Part shown: positions 1,419 to 23,195 of the stretch, in pieces
Numbering within the stretch: the stretch's first letter is position 1
How the letters are laid out: each line of letters opens with the position of its first letter
IMG/VR virus record: IMGVR_UViG_2537562012_000007
Span: 1 to 40,599 of that record
DNA length: 40,599 nt
Reading direction: 5' to 3' (one strand)
Source: a virus
Taxonomy: Duplodnaviria; Heunggongvirae; Uroviricota; Caudoviricetes
Program-made: the position numbers and the translations under genes
Notes under the pieces: generated by a model
What the model was told of the DNA's origin: nothing
Database searches by the model: none
What the model saw: the letters and a program-made list of their open reading frames with translations, nothing else

Positions 1419-3890
1419 TTAAAAATCAGCCTGACTCGGGATCAGTTTTTGCCAGATAACTGAAACGTATTTTGCCTGGTAACGGGCGTCATCAAGTGCA
1501 TTATGGCGCTCACCTTCGAATGGAATAGCCGTTCTGGCATCGAAGTCTATGGCTTTCCCCAGCTCAACGATTGTGCGTACATCGCGATCGTTGTAGTAAC
1601 GCCACGGGCAGGGGATCCCCTGCCGTTCGTATGAACGGCGCAAAATCGTGTTGTCGAAGTTGGCTCCATTTCCCCAGACCTGAACAAAAAATTCATCGGA
1701 GTTTTCGTCGATAAATTCCCGCAATTGTAACAGTGCATCATCTAACGGGATTTCATCGGTCATAATGGCAGATTGCGCCTCGCGTGATTGCTTAAGCCAC
1801 CATTTAATGGTGTCACGATCAATGACTCCGCCAGCAGTTTCCAGATCGATAGTCTTACTAAATTCCGGTCCCATATCTCCGGTTTGCGGATCGAAAAATA
1901 TTGCACCTATTGAGATAATCGGGGCATCAGGATTTTTTCCCATGGTTTCAAGGTCGATCATTAGATGGTCACACGTCCTGCTGGTGGATGTGATAACGCG
2001 ATGACCGTTCACCGTAATTAAGGGATCTGCCGTCTCGCCAGTTTCACTATCGCTGGCGTGATCCTGAGCGCTGCCAGCATTCTCCTTGTGTGGGTGTTCA
2101 GCGCCTTCCATTTTCTCCGAATCGTCTTCCTGAACTTCAACCTGGTTCTTGTCATCGAATGTTTCCTGGTATGTTGCGTCGCCCATCACCGCACCACAAT
2201 CAGGGCAGTTGCCACCACCGCTCTGACCGCAGGCGGTGCAGATTTTTTCCGGTTCCTGTTGCACTACTGGTTCAGGTTGTTTCGTTTCTGGCTCGTTTTG
2301 TTGCGTATTTGGGCTGTTTTGTTCCGCTTTCTGGTCGTTCTGTTCCGTTTCTTGCTGGTTCTGGTTCACAGTATCGCGGGTCTGGATCCCCTTAACCCAT
2401 TTCGGATCATTCGGGTCGCTAATCCCTTCAATAAATTCACCACGTGATGCAGCAAGCAACTTATCGGCGTCAGGCTGGCTGATATTGGCTGCCTGCATAA
2501 TTTTGTTTACTTCGTCAGCGGTAACTTTTACCGGTTCTGGCTGTGCGGTCGTGTCAGATGCACCAGTATTTTGTTGTGAACCTGAGTATGTACTGTTTTT
2601 GCGGGCGAAATATTCTTCTTTCGTGATTTCAGTAGCCCCGGCAGCCAGCGCCTTATCCAGACCAGAAAGTTTGTTTGCGCGACCGTATTTTTCGCCATCC
2701 TTGTCGGTGAAGAGGAAGTAGAACGGCCCCTCACGCTCTACAGATGGTTCGACTTCCACTTTGCATTCGGTTTTTTCGTTGTCCGGAATTGCCGTTTCCA
2801 CTGCATCAGTTTCTGGTACTGGCGACGAGAGAGTATCAGTTGCGCTCTGATTTGTTCCTTCATCTTCAAACACGCCCTTTGTAGTCAGGTATTCAGTAAT
2901 GTATTTGTTCAGTGCCACAGGATCTTTGTGAATGTCGATCGGACGTCCACGGACAAGGCCAAAAATAGTCTGGCGGTCGTAGCGAAGGGCATCAGGCTGT
3001 TTGCGCATCGATGCCGAGATACGCTTCCAGTCTTCGCGGTCGTTGTCGATAACTTCATTTTTTGCCCAGCGATGGATGCTGCCGTCAATGTTTCCGGCAT
3101 CCACATCACCAGGCCAGAGAGCGTAGGCCAGTTCGTCATCCAGTGTTTTCCATGTCTGCTTGTATTCGCGATGAATGACTGCAGTGACAGGGGAGATATT
3201 TTCTGCTGAGTTTTCAGTGTGCTGTCGGTTGACTCTGGCGCGGGCGAGATCAACAGCAGACGTGTATTTTCCGGTTTCCTTGCGTTCACCTTCGCGACGT
3301 TTTTTCCAGATGCGCATCTCTGCCTGAATTTCGGGCCATTTAGCTCCAGGCTTACATTTATGCTTAACCCACCCGATGGCATGCAACTTAAGTTCTGGAT
3401 ACATGGCGTTAACTTCTGGCATTTTCATCAACGCTTCAACGATATGTCCGTCGAATGTTGCCATGTCTTCCTGCAACAATTCCTGCGCGCTAATCACCAT
3501 ATCAACGGTGATGTTTTCACATGTGTCGAACTTAACCATGACAGCGTTCTGTACTTCAGGGGCCAGCTTGTCAAAAGTGACGTTCATCGGATCTGATTCA
3601 GTCTCAACCGGGACAAAGGAAGCAGACTCCTCATCCCAGCGGTTTTCCTGCATATATTCAGCATCCCAGGAATCGAGGGCAGGGCGGGGTATACCGGGTT
3701 TATCCTCGCAAACAAGAAATTTATAAGCGCAGTCCTGAGCAGCCGGATAATGCTCCAGGAATTGCCAGTGAAATTTTGCGCGGGCGCGACGTTCATCACC
3801 GGCTTCAATGGCAGTGGCTACAGCGACTGCACCTTCTTCCTTTATTGCCTGTTCGTCCGGAATGGCGGCGCAAATAAAGACTTTACTCAT
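1419..3890 (-). CDS. Large exonuclease: RecE-like central region, Zn-ribbon, C-terminal DnaQ-like (DEDDh) 3'-5' exonuclease domain
   Basis: 823 aa. C-terminus has DLETMG ... H-x4-D motifs; a central stretch ([33 protein letters not shown]) resembles RecE as I recall it; CxxC-x9-CxxC ribbon; Q/E/N-rich linker. GAGGT RBS upstream of the ATG at 3890. Confidence 0.75.
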
Positions 3891-3982
3891 TTTGTTTTAC
3901 CTCATTACAGATTTAAGGGTGAACAAATCCCTGCCATTGCTGGCATATAAGAATGAAAGCGGATGTTTATTACGGAACTGTT

Positions 3983-4174
3983 TTAAAGACCTGCCGGGAT
4001 TTCGTTATTATCCTGGTGAATAACTTTATCGACCGGGTAACAGTTACCGGGAATTTTCTGTTCGGTTGCTGCAGTCATACATTCCTGCATTGTCCTGTGA
4101 ACACTGACTGCAATATCAACTGGCTCTCCGGAAACAAGATAAACTGTCAGAACAAGCGCAAATGCTGAATTCAT
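3983..4174 (-). CDS. ydfD: YdfD-like small lysis-associated protein
   Basis: 63 aa, MNSAFALVLTVYLVSGEPVD..., closely matches my recollection of E. coli Qin YdfD; start overlaps the dicB stop (ATGA coupling). Confidence 0.7.
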   Translation of the reverse strand: MNSAFALVLTVYLVSGEPVDIAVSVHRTMQECMTAATEQKIPGNCYPVDKVIHQDNNEIPAGL

Positions 4175-4359
4175 TGTGCACATCCTTTTGGCATCAGACG
4201 TAAACGAGCCAGCATTGAAACAATGCATATTTTATTTAATAGCTCCCCTTCTTGTTTTCTCTTGTTAATGGCATCTTCAGTAAATACTGAGTTACTGATA
4301 GTGACACCAATTTCAAAACAACCTTCAGACGTATTAACGTTTGGTAATAACGTTTCCAT
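4171..4359 (-). CDS. dicB: Cell division inhibitor DicB
   Basis: 62 aa, METLLPNVNTSEGCFEIGVTISNSVFTEDAINKRKQEGELLNKICIVSMLARLRLMPKGCAQ, near-identical to Qin DicB as recalled; GAGGA RBS. Confidence 0.8.
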   Translation of the reverse strand: METLLPNVNTSEGCFEIGVTISNSVFTEDAINKRKQEGELLNKICIVSMLARLRLMPKGCAQ

Positions 4360-4533
4360 TATCGCGTCCTCAACAATGAATTTTGTGATGCGGTGCCTGG
4401 TGCCTCCAGGTGACGTTAACCAGTTAACAATTAACGCCGGATACAGAGAACCCACCCATAACACTGTTTTTGGTTTTAACTGTTCCGCGTGCGCTTAGCC
4501 GCATTCACCGCATCACAAAATTCACTTTAAAAA

Positions 4534-4586
4534 GGGCGGCAGAGCAGTCACGGAGTAAAACTGATACCGCTAAACGCCACCAGAAA
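4534..4586 (-). ncRNA. dicF: DicF small regulatory RNA
   Basis: Minus-strand 53 nt TTTCTGGTGGCGTTTAGCGGTATCAGTTTTACTCCGTGACTGCTCTGCCGCCC followed by a T-run; differs at about 2 positions from my recollection of E. coli DicF; lies immediately upstream of dicB as in Qin. Confidence 0.75.
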
Positions 4587-4917
4587 ATTGATAACAGAGG
4601 GCGTTGCAGCGGGGTTGTCACTTAAGCGTATGGTCAACCTGACAACCCGGTGTCCTCAACGGGGAAGGAATAACCCCGCCATACTTACCGCCGCGCCATT
4701 TCGCGGATTGCCACAACCGGAAGCGCACGGTCGAATTAAATTTAACGACACCGTACAGACAGAATAACTTCGCCGTGCGCTTTCGCGTTATGTCCTGATT
4801 TTTCAGGGATATATCCTTCCAGTAAACTGCCAGTGCCGGATGCTCACCCGTGTCCGGCGCACGCACTCCACCTGACCCGTGGAGAACTCCTTAATTACCA
4901 ACCCTCAGGAGGGGGAA

Positions 4918-5139
4918 ATGACTAGTAAAAATGTAAATATCCAGTTTAACCACGATGTTTCTCCTGCTGGACTTGCGGATGAGCTCACTGCTATAAAAAC
5001 GGCAATTATGCTACTTGCTGCTAAGTTGCCTGCGTCATCAAAGCCAGCGGAAATTTGTGACTCATTGCGTAAGATGAATTCAACAAAATGCAATGAGATG
5101 GCATCACTTATTGAAAGTGCAATTGATTTTAATGATTAA
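4918..5139 (+). CDS. Hypothetical small protein (73 aa), convergent with the early-left operon
   Basis: ATG at 4918 with AGGAGG 6 nt upstream; no recognisable domain. Confidence 0.4.
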   Translation: MTSKNVNIQFNHDVSPAGLADELTAIKTAIMLLAAKLPASSKPAEICDSLRKMNSTKCNEMASLIESAIDFND

Positions 5140-5503
5140 TCGAAATTTCATGGCTAACTGTAACACTCCCATCTGTGGCGGGATGGTTTAAATCGCTGGG
5201 ATTAATGCCGCACTCAGTAAAATGGTTCTTAAGGGGTTCTATCCGAATCCCTTTCTTTTTCATTAACAAGCCAAACCCCTTATCAATGATATCCATTAAT
5301 TCCAGGAGGTATTTTTCATGTAAATCCTGGTTATCAGAGAGCTGCTTCTCTTCGTACAGACCGATAAAGGCACGACGCACGTTACCGGATATAGTATCGA
5401 TGGTTTCTTTTTCTACGGTACTCAGGTCAAGAGTCGCCAGTTGGGAACGAACTATATTCGCTGCCATTTCCTGGAATTGCATTGGTAAATCTTTAAATTC
5501 CAT
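5129..5503 (-). CDS. Hypothetical protein (124 aa), early-left operon
   Basis: ORF with GAGG RBS about 7 nt upstream of the ATG at 5503; no recognisable domain. Confidence 0.55.
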   Translation of the reverse strand: MEFKDLPMQFQEMAANIVRSQLATLDLSTVEKETIDTISGNVRRAFIGLYEEKQLSDNQDLHEKYLLELMDIIDKGFGLLMKKKGIRIEPLKNHFTECGINPSDLNHPATDGSVTVSHEISINH

Positions 5504-5525
5504 TATTAGCCTCGTTGGTTAGCTA

Positions 5526-5744
5526 TTAACGTGGGTATGTAATCATTCTGGCAATGCTTAATGCCGCTGCTTTTTCCAAATTGGTGATATCCTGCTCCAG
5601 AGCGGACAGATTTTCAGCCTGCTTAGCCTTGGCTTCATTGGCCCATTTCAGGTCCTGCGCGGCCTTAATTTTCTGGCGCATCCACTCATAAAGCTCATCA
5701 TCGGTATAGTCTGGCGCGATGATGACGGGTTCTCGTTTCTGCAT
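5526..5744 (-). CDS. Small early protein, YdfC-like by size and position (72 aa)
   Basis: 72 aa ORF in the operon upstream of dicF; family assignment is by position and size only. Confidence 0.55.
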   Translation of the reverse strand: MQKREPVIIAPDYTDDELYEWMRQKIKAAQDLKWANEAKAKQAENLSALEQDITNLEKAAALSIARMITYPR

Positions 5745-5773
5745 ACTGATTCCTCGCGGTGCTGTTTCGCTTA

Positions 5774-5902
5774 TCAGCCGTTAGATTTTGCCGAGCTGGA
5801 AAGCGCCCGTTTAAATTCGCTGAAGCTGAGAGCTTCTTCGCCTTCGGCAAGGCCTTCGAAGTATTCTTCGTAAGCCTTTTCCATGATTGTGTCGAAATCC
5901 AT
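5774..5902 (-). CDS. Small early protein, YdfB-like by size and position (42 aa)
   Basis: Below the 60 aa track cutoff; found by manual translation (MDFDTIMEKAYEEYFEGLAEGEE...); AGGTGA RBS upstream of the ATG at 5902. Confidence 0.4.
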   Translation of the reverse strand: MDFDTIMEKAYEEYFEGLAEGEEALSFSEFKRALSSSAKSNG

Positions 5903-5903
5903 A

Positions 5904-6059
5904 TCACTCACCTGAGTTTCTTTCCAGCCAGCGACGGGCACCATTTTCGGTTTTAAACGTTTTGCTTTTGGTATACGTCATCGCGGTGAACGTACCGTCC
6001 TGGTTGGGGAACACGCCACATACCAGAGATTCGCTGTTGCCAAGATCGATAGTATCCAT
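5904..6059 (-). CDS. Small early protein, YdfA-like by size and position (51 aa)
   Basis: Internal ATG at 6059 with GAGGT RBS gives a 51 aa product (MDTIDLGN...); the 78 aa track ORF starts at an alternative codon further upstream. Confidence 0.45.
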   Translation of the reverse strand: MDTIDLGNSESLVCGVFPNQDGTFTAMTYTKSKTFKTENGARRWLERNSGE

Positions 6060-6351
6060 GCTGACCTCATTTCCCCTTAACGCCGGGGTAGCGGAACAAA
6101 AACCTGCTGCATAGTTATTAAAGTTGAACCCTGCCGTCATGTTCTTACGCCTCGGGCTGGCTACTTAACCCCTGACCACTGCCTGGTAACTCGAAGTATT
6201 GCCCTGCATTCTGTGGGGTGGGGTGAGGGAATGAATTGAGTTTAGAAAAATGAACTTTTCAGGTCAATGTTTTTTTATCAAAACATTTTAGGCAGGCAGC
6301 TGTTAAGCCATCACCACGATGGCATACAGTTAATCAAATAGATGAGGTTGG

Positions 6352-6990
6352 TTAAATATCTTGTTGAATTTTAAAGCATACGCCCAATATGCAAGATAGA
6401 TCATCCAGCATAATTGAAGGGTAGCGAGGATTCGTGGGGACTAAAAGAATATCCGGCCCTTCTATCTCCAGTTTACGAATGACAGGTGTTGTGGTCCCTT
6501 TGGGTAAGGCAAGGACAATATTTCCTGGTTGTACGGTTCGATCGGGATCAACAAAAACTGTTGAACCATTTGGGATGGAAACTCCCCCACCAGATGTTGA
6601 CATACTGTCACTCTCTAGAACAACTGCAAAGGTATTGGCCGGGATTTCTCCGACAAGCTGCACACAAGAGGTTATTGAGGAATTTTTCATATAATCACTC
6701 CAGCTTGCTGCCTGCTGAAGTGATAGTAGCGGAACCGTTTTTATCGGCGGTAAAGATAGATCAAGCGAATCACCTGTATTTAACTCTCCTCCATTAAGAA
6801 GCCAATTTTCGTTTACTTTCAATATCTTTGCCAGTGAACTTATGTAACGCGAGGACGGCGCTCCTCCACCGTTCATCCATTGACTTACGGAGCCTTTTGA
6901 TGCGCCAGTGGCATTGACAAGGTCTTTGCCTTTCAGGTTTAGCGCATGCATACGTTGGGTTATGCGTTCAGATATTGTTTGCTTGCTCAT
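6352..6990 (-). CDS. cI-like prophage repressor (XRE-type HTH plus LexA/S24 autopeptidase domain)
   Basis: 212 aa; N-terminal HTH (GASKGSVSQWMNGGGAPSS), C-terminal S24-like region with ESDSM serine motif; no SD sequence before the ATG at 6990, consistent with a leaderless PRM-type transcript; divergent from the cro-like gene. Confidence 0.85.
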   Translation of the reverse strand: MSKQTISERITQRMHALNLKGKDLVNATGASKGSVSQWMNGGGAPSSRYISSLAKILKVNENWLLNGGELNTGDSLDLSLPPIKTVPLLSLQQAASWSDYMKNSSITSCVQLVGEIPANTFAVVLESDSMSTSGGGVSIPNGSTVFVDPDRTVQPGNIVLALPKGTTTPVIRKLEIEGPDILLVPTNPRYPSIMLDDLSCILGVCFKIQQDI

Positions 6991-7081
6991 GTTTTGATTT
7001 TAAAACACAGATGGTTTTGTTTCTTGACTTTCTTTGGTTTTGATTATTAAACTTTTGGCGTTCAGTTTTATGGAGCGACTC

Positions 7082-7324
7082 ATGAAAAAATCAGAAGTAT
7101 TAGGCTATTTTGGCGGAGTTGTTAAAACAGCCGCAGCTCTAGGAACGTCAAAAACCACAGTCAGCATGTGGGGGGAAGAGGTTCCGTGGAAATGGGCGTT
7201 GCTAATTCAGGCAGTCACTGCCGGGGCGCTCAAATATGAGTTACACATACCGACGGTTGTCATTCCCGGTTCTGATCATAATCCGCCTTCTAACCAAGGG
7301 GGGATTCATGAAAATCAAGCATGA
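7082..7324 (+). CDS. Cro/DicC-like small DNA-binding protein
   Basis: MKKSEVLGYFGG...TAAALGTSKTTVSMWGEEVP, resembles P22-type Cro; GGAG RBS; first gene of the rightward operon opposite the repressor. Confidence 0.7.
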   Translation: MKKSEVLGYFGGVVKTAAALGTSKTTVSMWGEEVPWKWALLIQAVTAGALKYELHIPTVVIPGSDHNPPSNQGGIHENQA

Positions 7325-9858: not shown

Positions 9859-10905
9859 ATGACTAGTGAATCAAATGTTAATGCTCTGATAGAGCGTCAA
9901 TTCGAAGTTGCTGACGGTAATGTAAGAAGTCTTAATTTGCCGAAATATGATAAATATACAGTATGTAATTTACGGGGAGGCATTGGTAAGACATCTTTAA
10001 CTTTTAATCTGTCATATTTGGCGGATAACGCATTAATCGTGGATACGTGCCCGCAAGGAAATTTATCATATTTTTTTGACAATAATTATGCATCTTCGTC
10101 TAGCACAACTGCAAATGACCTCTTAATGCCTTATTTTGTTCCAGGGCTTGGATTTGCAACGCGTGCTGCAAAGCTAGTATCATCAACTAATGCTTGGTTT
10201 GCGGGCAAGAATAACTATTTTATTCAATCTGATAGTCAACTTTATCTTCTACCTACGCAAATGGCGAATGCTCTGGCTCAAGCCAGAACAATTTCTGGGG
10301 CTACTCAGCAGGTTGTTATTGATACAATTCTTTTTTCTCTGAAGAAAGAAATAGCCAGAGAAATGGTTGAAACTGGTACTACAAAAGCGTTAATTGATAC
10401 ATCACCTTTTTTCTCTGGAGCGACGCATTTATCTTGGCATGCAACAGATGCTTTAATAGTTCCAGTGAGGACAGATCAGCAATCGATTAATTCATTAAGA
10501 TTACTTATTGATACTCTGACTAAACCAACATCAGAATTTAGAAAGATAATGCCGTCTGATGGCCATACACCAAAAATTCAGATGGTGGTTATTACCCATT
10601 GCGGATGGTCAACAGTGGCAGGAGCAAGGAATAAACCAAATCAACAGACAAAAATGTACATCGAAGCTGTAAGAGAGGTAATTCGACAAAATATTAGTAA
10701 TTTTACAACAGATGATCCTAATAATCACATTGTGATTCTTGATGATTTTCTGGGTAGTGGCAGAATGTCAAGTGCTAAGTCTAAACCATTAGAGTTGTTA
10801 AATCCAGGAGATGCAATGACTGTGAATAGAGTTAGGACATCCGTGAATTTATCTGTTAACAAAATAAAAAATGAATTAAAGTTCATTCACAACTCCATAT
10901 GGTAA
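9859..10905 (+). CDS. ParA/MinD-family P-loop ATPase with C-terminal extension
   Basis: Deviant Walker A CNLRGGIGKTSLT followed by DTCPQGN, as in ParA/Soj; 348 aa; markedly AT-rich codon usage by eye relative to the phage backbone. Confidence 0.75.
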   Translation: MTSESNVNALIERQFEVADGNVRSLNLPKYDKYTVCNLRGGIGKTSLTFNLSYLADNALIVDTCPQGNLSYFFDNNYASSSSTTANDLLMPYFVPGLGFATRAAKLVSSTNAWFAGKNNYFIQSDSQLYLLPTQMANALAQARTISGATQQVVIDTILFSLKKEIAREMVETGTTKALIDTSPFFSGATHLSWHATDALIVPVRTDQQSINSLRLLIDTLTKPTSEFRKIMPSDGHTPKIQMVVITHCGWSTVAGARNKPNQQTKMYIEAVREVIRQNISNFTTDDPNNHIVILDDFLGSGRMSSAKSKPLELLNPGDAMTVNRVRTSVNLSVNKIKNELKFIHNSIW

Positions 10906-11959: not shown

Positions 11960-13081
11960 GTGTTTAACGGTACTAATTTAAGACTTGCTCGTCTGTATCA
12001 CGAGCTATCTCTGGAGCAGGTTGCTGAGAAGGTTGAAAAAACACGCCAGTATGTACAGCGACTGGAGTCTGGTTCAGCTACTCCATCCCCAGAGCTTATA
12101 AATAAATTAGCCGAGGTTTTGCGCGTGAAGCCCGCCTTTTTCGAAGGGCAGGAACATTCTCCTGTTAATGAAGAGATTGTACATTTTCGTAAACGCGCCT
12201 CGACAAGGATGTCAACGAAGCTATCAACACTCGCTAAGGCTGAGTTTTATCGTCGTTTTATTGATGTATTTGAAGATAACCTTAATTTGTCACCTGTTCG
12301 ATTTCCTGAATTTCGTGTCCATACACAAGAAGATATCGAGCGAGCGGCAGAAAAATGTCGTATTGAGTGGGGCTTAGGCTTTGGCCCAATTGAAAATATG
12401 ACTCGCCTTGCCGAGAAACTTGGGGCGTTTGTTACTTCATTTGACTCCGTTTCGGATGAAGTAGATGCACTGTCTGTTCCTCTACGAAGGCCTTTTATTG
12501 TTCGAAATACAGCTAAAAATTCACCTTGTAGGCAACGCTTTGATATTGCTCATGAGGTTGCCCATTTGATTCTTCATGAAGGAATTTCTACTGGGGATAG
12601 ATTAACTGAATCCCAGGCAAACCGTTTTGCCTCTGCTCTGTTGCTTCCCAGAACGTCGATGGCGAAATATTTTCCAAGACCTGTGGGGGGGAGGATAAAT
12701 TGGCAGGGACTAAGCCAATTTAAGTTGACATGGAAAGTAAGTAAGGCTGCCATTGTTTACAGGGCTCATCAATTAGGACTTTTGACTGATGAGCAGTACA
12801 GAACTGCATTTATGGGGTTGAAACGGAAAGGGGAAGCTATTGATGAAAAAGAAGATTATCTAATCCCTCATGAGCGTCCTGAGTTATTCCGTCGGGCTTT
12901 ATCGTTTTTATTTGAAGAGTTAGGATACGACCCACAGCGTATAGCTGATGAAATGGATATAGAAGTGGACATTTTTTATGAGTTAGTAGGAGATGATCTT
13001 CCTGCGGTTCATGAACTGCCAGGAAGTGGTGATGTTGTTTCACTACAATCTTACCGAACTCTTAGAGGCAAAATTCACTAG
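11960..13081 (+). CDS. XRE-family HTH fused to ImmA/IrrE-type zinc metallopeptidase
   Basis: N-terminal HTH (LRLARLYHELSLEQVAEKVEKTRQYVQRLESG), central HEVAHLILHE (HExxH) motif typical of ImmA/IrrE (COG2856-like); GTG start. Confidence 0.8.
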   Translation: MFNGTNLRLARLYHELSLEQVAEKVEKTRQYVQRLESGSATPSPELINKLAEVLRVKPAFFEGQEHSPVNEEIVHFRKRASTRMSTKLSTLAKAEFYRRFIDVFEDNLNLSPVRFPEFRVHTQEDIERAAEKCRIEWGLGFGPIENMTRLAEKLGAFVTSFDSVSDEVDALSVPLRRPFIVRNTAKNSPCRQRFDIAHEVAHLILHEGISTGDRLTESQANRFASALLLPRTSMAKYFPRPVGGRINWQGLSQFKLTWKVSKAAIVYRAHQLGLLTDEQYRTAFMGLKRKGEAIDEKEDYLIPHERPELFRRALSFLFEELGYDPQRIADEMDIEVDIFYELVGDDLPAVHELPGSGDVVSLQSYRTLRGKIH

Positions 13082-17023: not shown

Positions 17024-17099
17024 GGCCCTTTAGCTCAGTGGTGAGAGCGAGCGACTCATAATCGCCAGGTCGCTGGTTCAAATCCAGCAAGGGCCACCA
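17024..17099 (+). tRNA. ileZ: tRNA-Ile2-like (anticodon CAU)
   Basis: Manual cloverleaf: acceptor GGCCCTT/AAGGGCC, D-arm GCTC/GAGC, anticodon loop CTCATAA, T-loop TTCAAAT, CCA end; resembles E. coli tRNA-Ile2 more than elongator tRNA-Met by recollection. Confidence 0.8.
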
Positions 17100-17100
17100 A

Positions 17101-17177
17101 CCGCCACTAGCTCATCAGGAAAGAGCGTCAACCCTTTAAGTTGAGTGTGCGAGGTTCGAGTCCCCGGTGGCGGTCCA
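17101..17177 (+). tRNA. tRNA-like gene, anticodon apparently UUU (Lys-like), atypical
   Basis: Acceptor CCGCCAC/GTGGCGG, anticodon stem TCAAC/GTTGA with loop CCTTTAA (C at position 33), T-loop TTCGAGT, CCA end; D-loop lacks the usual GG. Confidence 0.55.
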
Positions 17178-17179
17178 GT

Positions 17180-17255
<76 letters not shown>

Positions 17256-17258
17256 TAT

Positions 17259-17333
<75 letters not shown>

Positions 17334-20758: not shown

Positions 20759-21307
20759 ATGAAGGTTAATAAAAAGAAGCTCGCGGAAATTTTCAACGTG
20801 GATCCACGAACGATTGAACGCTGGCAGTCTCAGGGGCTCTCTTGTGTCTCTGGTGGTAGTAAGGGGGTTGAATCTGTATTTGATACCGCCATGGCAATTC
20901 AGTGGTATGCGCAGCGCGAAGCCGATATTGAAAACGAAAAACTCCGCAAAGAGACCGAGGATTTGCGTGCGGCTGCGGAATCAGATTTACAACCCGGCAC
21001 CATTGACTATGAGCGCTACCGACTCACAAAAGCACAGGCTGATGCACAGGAACTGAAAAATGCCCGCGAAGAAGGGCTGGTACTGGAAACGGAATTGTTT
21101 ACCTTCATTCTGCAACGTGTGGCACAGGAGATTTCGGGGATACTTGTACGTGTGCCGCTGACATTACAGCGTAAATATCCGGATATTTCACCGTCACACC
21201 TTGATGTGGTGAAAACTGAAATCGCAAAAGCCTCCAACGTTGCAGCTAAAGCTGGTGAGAACGTAGGCGGGGGGATTGATGATTTCAGACGCACAGAAGG
21301 CAGCTAA
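20759..21307 (+). CDS. Terminase small subunit (Nu1)
   Basis: [27 protein letters not shown]... aligns with lambda Nu1. Confidence 0.9.
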
Positions 21308-23195
21308 TGCAGCCGGTGCGATAGCAACAGGGCTTGTATCTCTCAATATTCCGGTACCACTGACGACAGTTCAGTGGGCTGATCAGCATTATTATCTGCC
21401 AAAAGAGTCTTCATATACTCCCGGGCAATGGGAAACACTGCCGTTTCAGGTTGCCATCATGAACAGCATGGGGAATGACCGGATCCGCACCGTTAATCTG
21501 ATTAAATCGGCGCGTGTTGGTTACACCAAAATGCTGTTGGGGGTGGAGGCTTATTTTATTGAACACAAATCCCGTAACAGCCTGCTTTTTCAGCCGACAG
21601 ATTCTGCGGCAGAAGATTTTATGAAATCCCATGTCGAACCAACGATAAGAGACGTTCCTGTATTACTGGAGCTGGCTCCGTGGTTTGGCAGAAAACATCG
21701 GGACAACACGCTTACCCTGAAACGTTTCTCCTCCGGTGTGGGATTCTGGTGTCTGGGCGGAGCTGCTGCCAAAAACTACCGTGAAAAATCTGTGGATGTG
21801 GTCTGCTATGACGAACTCTCCTCGTTTGAACCGGATGTGGAAAAAGAAGGTTCACCAACTCTGCTTGGCGATAAGCGTATCGAAGGTTCGGTATGGCCTA
21901 AATCCATACGCGGCTCAACGCCCAAAATTAAAGGTTTTTGCCAGATTGAAAAAGCCGCGAACGAATCTGCACATTTTATGCGGTTTTATGTGCCATGCCC
22001 TCATTGTGGTGAAGCCCAGTATCTGAAGTTTGGCGATGATGCGACAACCTTTGGCCTGAAATGGGAGAAGGGCAAGCCGGAGACGGTGTATTACCTGTGT
22101 GAACATAATGGCTGCGTGATCCGTCAGTCGGAACTTGACCAGACCGACGGGCGGTGGATTTGTGACAATACCGGGATGTGGACGCGTGACGGTCTGACAT
22201 TTTACAGCGCCGGTGATGAGGAAATCCCGCCACCGCGCTCAATCTCGTATCACATCTGGACGGCATACAGCCCGTTCACCACCTGGGTACAGATTGTTTA
22301 TGACTGGCTTGATGCACTGAAGGATCCGAATGGCGTCAAGACGTTCATTAACACCACGCTGGGGGAGCCTTATGAAGAGGCTGTGGCAGAAAAACTGAGC
22401 TTTGAGTTGTTGCTGGAAAAAGTCTGCCACTATGATGCGCAGGTTCCCCTGCGGGTGGTTTACCTGACCGCAGGGATCGACTCTCAGAAAAACCGTTATG
22501 AGATTTATGTCTGGGGCTGGGCTCCTGGCGAAGAAGCTTTTCTGATTGACAAGCAGATCATCATGGGGAGACCGGAAGATGAGGACACCCTTAAACGCGT
22601 TGATGCCGTGATCCGGAAAAAATACCGTCATGCAGATGGCACTGAAATTTCCATTTCCCGCGTCTGCTGGGATACCGGTGGTATTGACCAGGACATTGTG
22701 TATCAGCGATCCAGAAAACACGGCACTTTTTTTGTGCTCCCCATCAAAGGGGCGTCGGTGTACGGCAAGCCGGTGATCACCATGCCAAAAAAGCGAAACC
22801 AGCGTGGGGGGTTTTTGTGTGAGGTGGGTTCCGATACCGTCAAGGAAATGCTGTATGCGCGTTTTGCCCTGCCGGTGGTATCTGCCAGTGAAGTCGCACC
22901 GTATACCTTCCGTTTTCCGGATAACCCGGACATTTTTTCTGATGTTGAAGCTAAACAACTCGTGGCAGAAGAGCTGGTTGAAAAAGTTGTGAACGGGCGG
23001 GTGAAACTCCAGTGGGATGCCAGAAAACGGCGTAATGAAGCTCTGGACTGTCTGGTGTATGCCTATGCAGCGCTGCGCATTTCCGTTCAGCGGTGGCAAC
23101 TGGATCTGGATGCACTGGCCCGCGCCAGAAGAGATGAACAGGACGACGATGAAATGACTATTGAAGAAATCGCGGCTGCTCTGAGTGGAGGATAA
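21279..23195 (+). CDS. Terminase large subunit (gpA)
   Basis: Aligns with lambda gpA over its whole length (e.g. [42 protein letters not shown]). Confidence 0.95.

Follow-up and report, generated by a model that had tools for sequence, protein, structure and literature searches.

The window analysed here is the whole of a 40,599-nucleotide (nt) stretch of DNA from a virus of the class Caudoviricetes (IMG/VR record IMGVR_UViG_2537562012_000007, positions 1 to 40,599). On its minus strand, downstream of a PL-like promoter, it carries the dicBF module, which is known from the cryptic prophage Qin of Escherichia coli K-12 and comprises DicF, which is a small RNA (sRNA), and the small proteins DicB and YdfD. 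An earlier note had placed a Qin-type module of this kind in an early-left operon at positions 3983-4890. This placement stands, as the region is collinear with Qin and about 95% identical to it, and the coordinates given were all correct; it has to be refined by a 602-bp cassette that lies just outside them. The repressor gene, the promoter and the features of the operon are, from upstream to downstream:

6352-6990, minus strand: lambda-cI-like repressor, 212 amino acids (aa), with the Pfam domains HTH_3 (N-terminal; helix-turn-helix, HTH) and Peptidase_S24 (C-terminal)
6239-6286, minus strand: PL-like promoter TTGACC-17-TAAACT (6267-6239) with an adjacent or overlapping operator (6267-6286), from a promoter scan and repeats
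5904-6059, minus strand: ydfA, 51 aa, two substitutions compared with K-12 YdfA
5774-5902, minus strand: ydfB, 42 aa, one substitution compared with K-12 YdfB
5526-5744, minus strand: ydfC, 72 aa, two substitutions compared with K-12 YdfC; phrog_1744
5129-5503, minus strand: open reading frame (ORF) ORF-A, 124 aa, first part of the cassette; phrog_6937 over the full length
4918-5139, plus strand: ORF-B, 73 aa, opposed to the PL operon; phrog_7249; Shine-Dalgarno sequence AGGAGG 5 nt before the ATG
4834-4917, plus strand: conserved 5' region of ORF-B with hairpins at about 4833-4860 and 4866-4884 and a possible anti-Shine-Dalgarno element, from DNA homology and folds
4587-4903, minus strand: non-coding leader between cassette and dicF, corresponding to the ydfC-dicF spacer of K-12 and aligned with K-12, Tritos and 640R1
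4710-4792, minus strand: helix of about 22 bp (4769-4792 with 4710-4733) carrying the inferred RNase III site, from the consensus fold of 46 unique leaders
4534-4586, minus strand: DicF sRNA, 53 nt, allele G10/A16; RF00039
4360-4533, minus strand: structured dicF-dicB spacer, which is the dicB 5' untranslated region (UTR), 174 nt, from folds compared with shuffled controls and the consensus of 39 unique sequences
4171-4359, minus strand: dicB, 62 aa; PF05358 with 133 bits (cut-off 27) and NF049927 with 130 bits (cut-off 100)
3983-4174, minus strand: ydfD, 63 aa, DUF1482; PF07358 with 88.4 bits (cut-off 25)
3922-3945, minus strand: weak terminator-like hairpin UGCCAGCAAUGGCA then GGGAUUUGUU, after ydfD, from a terminator scan

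A scan of the whole window with cmscan and Rfam 15 yielded five matches at the gathering threshold, namely DicF and four tRNAs. DicF (RF00039) was found at 4534-4585 on the minus strand with 68.6 bits, compared to a gathering score of 48 (E-value 3.4e-13), and the match spans the full length of the model (positions 1-52 of 52). This alignment had been named in the earlier note both as a check and as the test that could refute the assignment. The note had also described a 53-nt minus-strand segment differing from E. coli DicF at about two positions, and relative to K-12 dicF there are indeed exactly two changes, A10G and G16A (51 of 53 nt identical). Both substitutions are located in the 5' part of the sRNA; nt 17-53 do not differ from K-12 and contain the ftsZ-pairing region, and the ftsZ-pairing 3' half is thus intact. 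The canonical 3' stem-loop is present, with a single basal A.C mismatch that results from G16A, and is followed by the U-run UUUUU. For K-12, pairing between DicF and ftsZ has been shown experimentally and the target regions of DicF have been defined (PMC5069750). The duplex between DicF nt 22-53 and positions -28 to +1 of ftsZ is predicted to have an energy of -27.9 kcal/mol, which is the same for both alleles. The 13-bp duplex with xylR is also kept: A10G turns an A-U into a G.U pair and G16A a G.U into an A-U pair (predicted -20.3 vs -20.0 kcal/mol).

The 62-aa DicB and the 63-aa YdfD, which had been recognised downstream of DicF, are both intact and pass their family models. In the case of DicB, the match covers residues 1-62 of 62 and the NCBIfam model bears the name CellDivInhibDicB. 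DicB differs from the K-12 protein by the substitutions K2E, P24S and R38G (59 of 62 aa identical), and YdfD by three substitutions (60 of 63 residues identical). The stop codon of dicB and the start codon of ydfD overlap as ATGA, the Shine-Dalgarno sequence of dicB is GAGGA, and the G+C content of dicB-ydfD is 40%. In K-12, DicB blocks cell division in a MinC-dependent manner and inhibits ManYZ (PMC10448788, PMC6832061), and YdfD causes lysis via inhibition of IspG, an activity shown for K-12 only (PMC8835842). The ydfABC-dicFB-ydfD transcript of K-12 was reported to be 1,608 nt long (PMC10448788); by position arithmetic, the hairpin at 3922-3945 would roughly fit the end of this transcript.

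The leader upstream of dicF is homologous to the 340-nt ydfC-dicF spacer of K-12 and lies inside a block that is 94.7% identical overall. As had been described before, the roughly 300 nt in front of DicF (4587-4890) are GC-rich, with a G+C content of 54.6% (53.6% for 4587-4903) compared to 41% for the upstream cassette, and fold into several helices. An 82-aa ORF in this leader (4618-4866), which matches phrog_8854, was rejected as a coding sequence, since no more than 2 of 46 unique homologues keep it open, namely the window and one near-identical locus. In 40 of the 44 other unique homologues, K-12 included, this ORF is stopped after codon 15 (the remaining four were unreadable by the script), and the leader is therefore considered non-coding.

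The same 300 nt had been taken as consistent with the processed DicF precursor, and here the proximal and the distal parts of the leader have to be distinguished. In K-12, two RNases release DicF from the polycistronic RNA: a 190-nt species owes its 5' end to RNase III, and the 53-nt DicF to RNase E (PMC10448788). If such a 190-nt RNA ended at the DicF terminator in the window, its 5' end would lie at about 4717-4723, inside the helix of about 22 bp. Across the 46 unique leaders, the pairs of this helix are invariant or show one-sided changes, and the only hypervariable patch of the leader (4734-4768) corresponds to its apical loop. At the mature 5' end, the window and K-12 have the same RNase E site context, UUAUCAAU/UUUCUGG. 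Conservation of the RNase III helix and of the sequence at the mature 5' end thus supports the precursor interpretation for the proximal 131-137 nt, which would form part of a 190-nt precursor, and the processing steps of DicF in this prophage are predicted from the K-12 experiments. The distal 70 nt (4834-4903), however, are also the 5' region of ORF-B. A long-range pairing between the distal leader and DicF, which appeared in the consensus fold, was rejected, as it is no better than in shuffled sequences (z = -0.1).

Between dicF and dicB lies a highly structured spacer with a minimum free energy (MFE) of -77.4 kcal/mol (z = -5.8 compared to shuffled controls). It is closed by a helix of about 28 bp (4506-4533 with 4367-4395), which reaches from the U-tail of DicF to a position beside the Shine-Dalgarno sequence of dicB. 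Covariation support for the helices of leader and spacer is weak because the sequences are too similar: no compensatory pairs were found in the leader (46 unique sequences) and two in the spacer (39). The spacer resembles STnc100, a prophage sRNA family that was related to PasD in a 2026 preprint. Positions 4327-4536 on the minus strand align end to end with the STnc100 model (RF02076) and share its CACC-hairpin-GGCACC core with compensatory changes; however, the score of 38.4 bits is below the gathering score of 47. By the Rfam criterion, membership in the family was rejected and the likeness is a resemblance only. Canonical copies of STnc100 are found elsewhere, for instance, downstream of stx2 (PMC12370729).

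The operon is very probably controlled by the lambda-cI-like repressor, judging from its operators. The PL-like promoter is flanked by ATGTTTTGATAAAAAAACAT, which contains the operator half-site GTTTTGAT. This half-site recurs three times with a spacing of about 23 nt between the repressor gene and a P22-Cro-like gene (7034-7324), and the repeats D2, D3, I1 and I2 tie 6240-6286 to 6989-7056, which is the cI-cro intergenic region. Since the PL half-site is shared with this region, the claim of the earlier note that the module is under a cI-like repressor is borne out at the level of the operators; what has to be qualified is the cleavage of the repressor during the SOS response, which is considered below. 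An alignment of the repressor with lambda cI (PDB 3bdn) covers residues 13-204. Both residues of the catalytic dyad are kept, Ser in ESDSM and Lys in IRKL, and match Ser149 and Lys192 of lambda cI. Between PL and dicF, cassette included, the terminator scan reported no terminator-like site on the minus strand.

Comparison with known systems places the module close to Qin of K-12. Both have the gene order ydfA-ydfB-ydfC-dicF-dicB-ydfD-(ydfE), and collinearity with Qin extends over 6097-3802 of the minus strand, at a DNA identity of 95.8% for 6097-5506, the block that contains ydfA, and 94.7% for 4903-3802. Qin and the window also have in common the leader, the helix for RNase III, the sequence context of the RNase E site and the structured spacer between dicF and dicB. 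In contrast to Qin, the window contains the 602-bp cassette, consisting of ORF-A and the antisense ORF-B, 20 nt after ydfC, and its 212-aa repressor is of the lambda-cI type with an S24 domain. The Qin repressor DicA has 135 aa and lacks an S24 domain, and the dicB promoter dicBp is not induced by mitomycin C (PMC10448788). Furthermore, Qin is cryptic, whereas the element that hosts the module here looks complete.

Identities of 94-96% were found for the phages Tritos, mEp460_ev081, vB_EcoS-640R1 and PhiR42_1, in which dicF, dicB and ydfD are followed by an exonuclease gene; phage 640R1 also has the same cI (98.9%). The sequenced dicBF phage genomes differ from the window in that they are devoid of the 602-bp cassette. 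Prophages of enterotoxigenic E. coli (ETEC; F9792, TW10598, B2C and others) are 99.7% identical over 3900-5800, including the cassette and the DicF allele, but have a DicA-type immunity region in place of the cI of the window. Judged from these alignments, the immunity region is swapped relative to the closest ETEC prophages of the same dicBF haplotype. The ETEC strains E24377A and TW10598 both have the identical haplotype. With phages lacking the cassette on the one hand and ETEC prophages with DicA-type immunity on the other, the window thus combines known pieces into a mosaic. The immunity region itself is shared by 728 complete genomes at about 98% identity.

The module is an already-known, common system, and each piece of it is public. 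With an 81-nt query around dicF, matches were obtained in 3949 of 5426 complete E. coli genomes (about 73%), and dicF, dicB and ydfD have already been annotated in phage Tritos and others. The exact proteins are present on public contigs, DicB on 183, YdfD on 691 (where it is named lysis protein YdfD), ORF-A on 815 and ORF-B on at least 999; in ETEC genomes, the cassette ORFs are annotated as hypothetical proteins. A functional analogue is kil of phage lambda, a PL-operon product by which formation of the FtsZ ring is transiently prevented upon induction. However, Kil is a single small protein that is not known to be related in sequence, whereas the module described here consists of an sRNA and two proteins.

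Compared to K-12, Tritos and 640R1, the cassette (4904-5505) is inserted 20 nt after ydfC. What lies between ydfC and the leader varies: of the 62 dicF loci in IMG/VR for which both flanks are available, 49 show the K-12 state with a 20-nt gap, 6 have a 381-nt insert containing ORF-A alone and 7 have inserts of 610-654 nt. For ORF-A, 239 homologues were found in Escherichia and Salmonella, all of which are hypothetical proteins; the N-terminal 53 aa or so are conserved, the C-termini are variable, and substitutions are biased to the third codon position. Neither ORF-A nor ORF-B has a match in Pfam, NCBIfam or PADLOC, and their PHROGs are of unknown function only. The AlphaFold models of both proteins are helical and of low confidence (predicted local distance difference test scores of 60 and 65), and no relative of ORF-B with a solved structure was found.

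ORF-A and ORF-B are convergent and overlap by 11 nt. For ORF-B, a third-position bias alone is no proof of the reading frame, because the antisense frame shares the third positions. The frame is settled by homologues with 74% and 67% identity, which are encoded in a Salmonella Muenchen prophage and on a metagenome contig and which keep the plus-strand frame open, while the antisense frame contains 3-4 stops. A 62-aa sense ORF opposite ORF-B (4905-5093) was rejected, as it has only a TTG start, no Shine-Dalgarno sequence and 3-4 stops in the homologues. A profile search against 1.84 billion representatives revealed a family of about ten diverged proteins of approximately 71-107 aa, most of them near 73 aa, which share the motif ELxAIKxAIxLIAAKxP...ICDSLR; a locus search with a closer ORF-B alignment returned E. 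coli prophages only. In the Salmonella locus, the ORF-B homologue is again the sole gene opposed to the surrounding early operon. This Salmonella prophage (L124), an unrelated element with the same hairpins, is integrated beside pheL/pheA and also contains a C4 antisense RNA at 1900-1987 on the minus strand (RF01695, 71.8 bits) and a sub-threshold isrK-like match. DNA homology to the Salmonella prophage (L124, 2862-2944) and to the metagenome contig (L126, 884-969) starts at position 4834 of the window, which is 84 nt before the ATG of ORF-B, and the distal 70 nt of the dicF leader are therefore also regarded as the 5' region of ORF-B.

Outside the operon, the following features were identified in the window:

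1-1119: lambda-type integrase; an excisionase is also encoded in the window
1419-3890, minus strand: exonuclease of 823 aa, exonuclease VIII-like, after ydfD
7034-7324: P22-Cro-like gene
9859-10905, plus strand: ParA/MinD-like AAA_31 ATPase
11960-13081, plus strand: 373-aa protein with HTH and IrrE/ImmA-like M78 peptidase domains
17024-17333, plus strand: four clustered tRNAs (Met-CAT, Lys-TTT, Thr-TGT and Gly-TCC), from Rfam
21276-23195: large terminase, followed by long rightward unannotated ORFs through the rest of the window

The window looks like a near-complete lambdoid prophage because integrase, excisionase, immunity switch, tRNAs, terminase and long rightward ORFs are present. It also encodes a YdaT-family protein and a DUF968 protein. 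The 823-aa exonuclease ends in an Rv2179c-like 3'-5' exoribonuclease domain (228 bits), and K-12 ydfE is a truncated pseudogene of it. The genes for the M78-peptidase protein and the AAA_31 ATPase are located near each other in the region that follows the immunity switch and seem to be accessory genes. The tRNA cluster lies upstream of unannotated ORFs that are candidates for lysis genes by position and size only; in the related prophage L127, the Prokaryotic Genome Annotation Pipeline labels the first tRNA as Ile.

Taken together, the locus is best explained as a functional copy of the lambdoid, Qin-type dicBF cell-division-inhibition operon, located within the early-left operon of a lambdoid prophage that is apparently complete, a reading to which we assign a probability of about 0.9. 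The identity of the parts, their synteny, the intact ORFs, the conservation of processing helix and site and the sharing of operators with the immunity switch were computed here. In the proposed course of events, the cI-like repressor would leave the PL operators, which would allow the synthesis of a polycistronic RNA comprising ydfA-ydfB-ydfC-ORF-A-leader-dicF-spacer-dicB-ydfD. RNase III would then cut the helix of about 22 bp approximately 131-137 nt upstream of dicF, thereby producing the 190-nt species, and RNase E would cut at UCAAU/UUUCUGG to generate the 5' end of the 53-nt DicF, the 3' end of which would be formed by the terminator hairpin and the U-run. By analogy with the K-12 experiments, the targets and phenotypes of DicF, DicB and YdfD would be the same here: the 3' half of DicF would pair with the ribosome-binding site of ftsZ and its 5' end with xylR and other mRNAs, and read-through of the leaky DicF terminator would permit production of DicB, which would recruit MinC against Z-rings and inhibit ManYZ, and of YdfD, which would cause lysis through inhibition of IspG.

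Several observations weigh against this explanation. The module is known here from its sequence alone and its expression is predicted. The DicB substitutions P24S and R38G occur in none of the twelve commonest alleles in a sample of 119 loci, and the convergent ORF-B inside the operon could interfere with transcription from PL. The repressor reads Ala-Ala (QAAS) at the position of the Ala111-Gly112 bond of lambda cI (QAGM). Of the features of SOS-cleavable cI/LexA proteins, it has the HTH domain and the S24 domain with the Ser/Lys dyad, but not the Ala-Gly (or Cys-Gly) scissile bond, and SOS cleavage is therefore not assured. The control logic is thus lambda-like in its architecture, with SOS cleavability unproven. 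The DicF allele G10/A16 is rare, as 16 of 3958 E. coli records, mostly from ETEC strains, are exact over 81 nt, and in its predicted MFE fold (-18.5 kcal/mol) the seed nt 6-12 are paired with the terminator's 3' arm, which could alter target use or termination. It is very unlikely that the match is a decayed relic, namely what is left of a prophage whose operon has fallen silent or lost its link to the promoter. Qin itself is cryptic and the 602-bp cassette interrupts the operon relative to Qin; however, all ORFs of the operon are intact and have ribosome-binding sites, the terminator scan found no sense-strand terminator-like site in the cassette, the window holds an integrase, an excisionase, an immunity switch, a terminase, tRNAs and long rightward ORFs, and the same module is present in the sequenced phage genomes of Tritos, mEp460 and 640R1. 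Somewhat less improbable is a module that is present but contains a functionally shifted DicF, by which targets of the 5' seed such as xylR, pykA and others would be less regulated and repression of ftsZ would be kept. According to the predicted folds, A10G allows the seed GGUGGCG to pair with UGCCGCC in the terminator's 3' arm, and the canonical hairpin loses its basal G-C pair through G16A. The MFE structure thereby changes from the canonical hairpin of K-12 (-15.9 kcal/mol) to the seed-occluding fold, the canonical hairpin reaches only -13.2 kcal/mol in G10/A16, and nt 4-14 are paired with a mean probability of 0.63 instead of 0.09. The rarity of the allele would agree with such a shift, as only 1 of 119 IMG/VR dicF loci has G10/A16, compared to 113 with the K-12-type A10/G16. 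However, the argument is a thermodynamic prediction alone, xylR pairing is preserved by both substitutions, and binding of Hfq and of targets can open such DicF folds. In addition, G10 is found again in several natural DicF alleles and is therefore tolerated, and the rarity of G10/A16 can be attributed to its linkage to one haplotype, since it occurs in 9 of 16 ORF-B loci with a strict DicF match.

A more serious, although still doubtful, alternative concerns the distal leader, which might primarily be the promoter-proximal 5' UTR of the antisense ORF-B rather than part of the DicF precursor. ORF-B would then be a moron expressed in the lysogen, and convergent transcription, starting near 4832 and ending at a terminator-like hairpin at 5231-5253, would oppose read-through from PL into dicF and dicB. 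ORF-B belongs to a real protein family, the terminator scan placed this hairpin on the plus strand 3' of ORF-B, and the 84 nt before the ATG are conserved with the Salmonella and metagenome homologues, beside which DicF was sought and not found. Compensatory changes are seen at three pairs in 4834-4917, of which hairpin 2 contains two, and hairpin 1 has three G.U pairs that are standard on the plus strand only. In front of hairpin 1 there is a -10-like TAAACT, with TTTTCA 17 nt upstream of it, and this element is conserved in all 46 leaders. Furthermore, of the 29 E. coli prophage loci found with ORF-B, 24 extend over the place expected for dicF and were examined, and DicF lies about 330 nt away on the opposite strand in all 24. 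On the other hand, the same 70 nt are kept in K-12-type leaders without ORF-B and are therefore not dependent on it, the covariation in the ORF-B hairpins comes from three sequences, and the candidate promoter TTTTCA-17-TAAACT agrees with the consensus at 8 of 12 positions and was not reported by the promoter scan. In K-12, no additional promoter was found within the operon in a study that looked at the sense strand only (PMC10448788). It is tempting to speculate further that ORF-B is expressed from TAAACT in the lysogen as a moron, that convergent transcription and antisense RNA gate the PL-driven expression of dicF and dicB, and that the leader of K-12 contains a relic of this control element; this extended proposal seems slightly less likely again.

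The functional dicBF operon thus remains the preferred explanation, and for annotation the window can be described as containing an intact set of DicF, DicB and YdfD under a lambda-type immunity switch. The module itself leaves the current understanding unchanged. What the window adds are three incremental local variants, namely an antisense small gene within the operon, a rare DicF allele with predicted seed masking and an Ala-Ala linker in the repressor. By analogy with K-12, induction of the prophage should lead to filamentation and metabolic rewiring via xylR, pykA and manX, and possibly to ManYZ-dependent phage exclusion.

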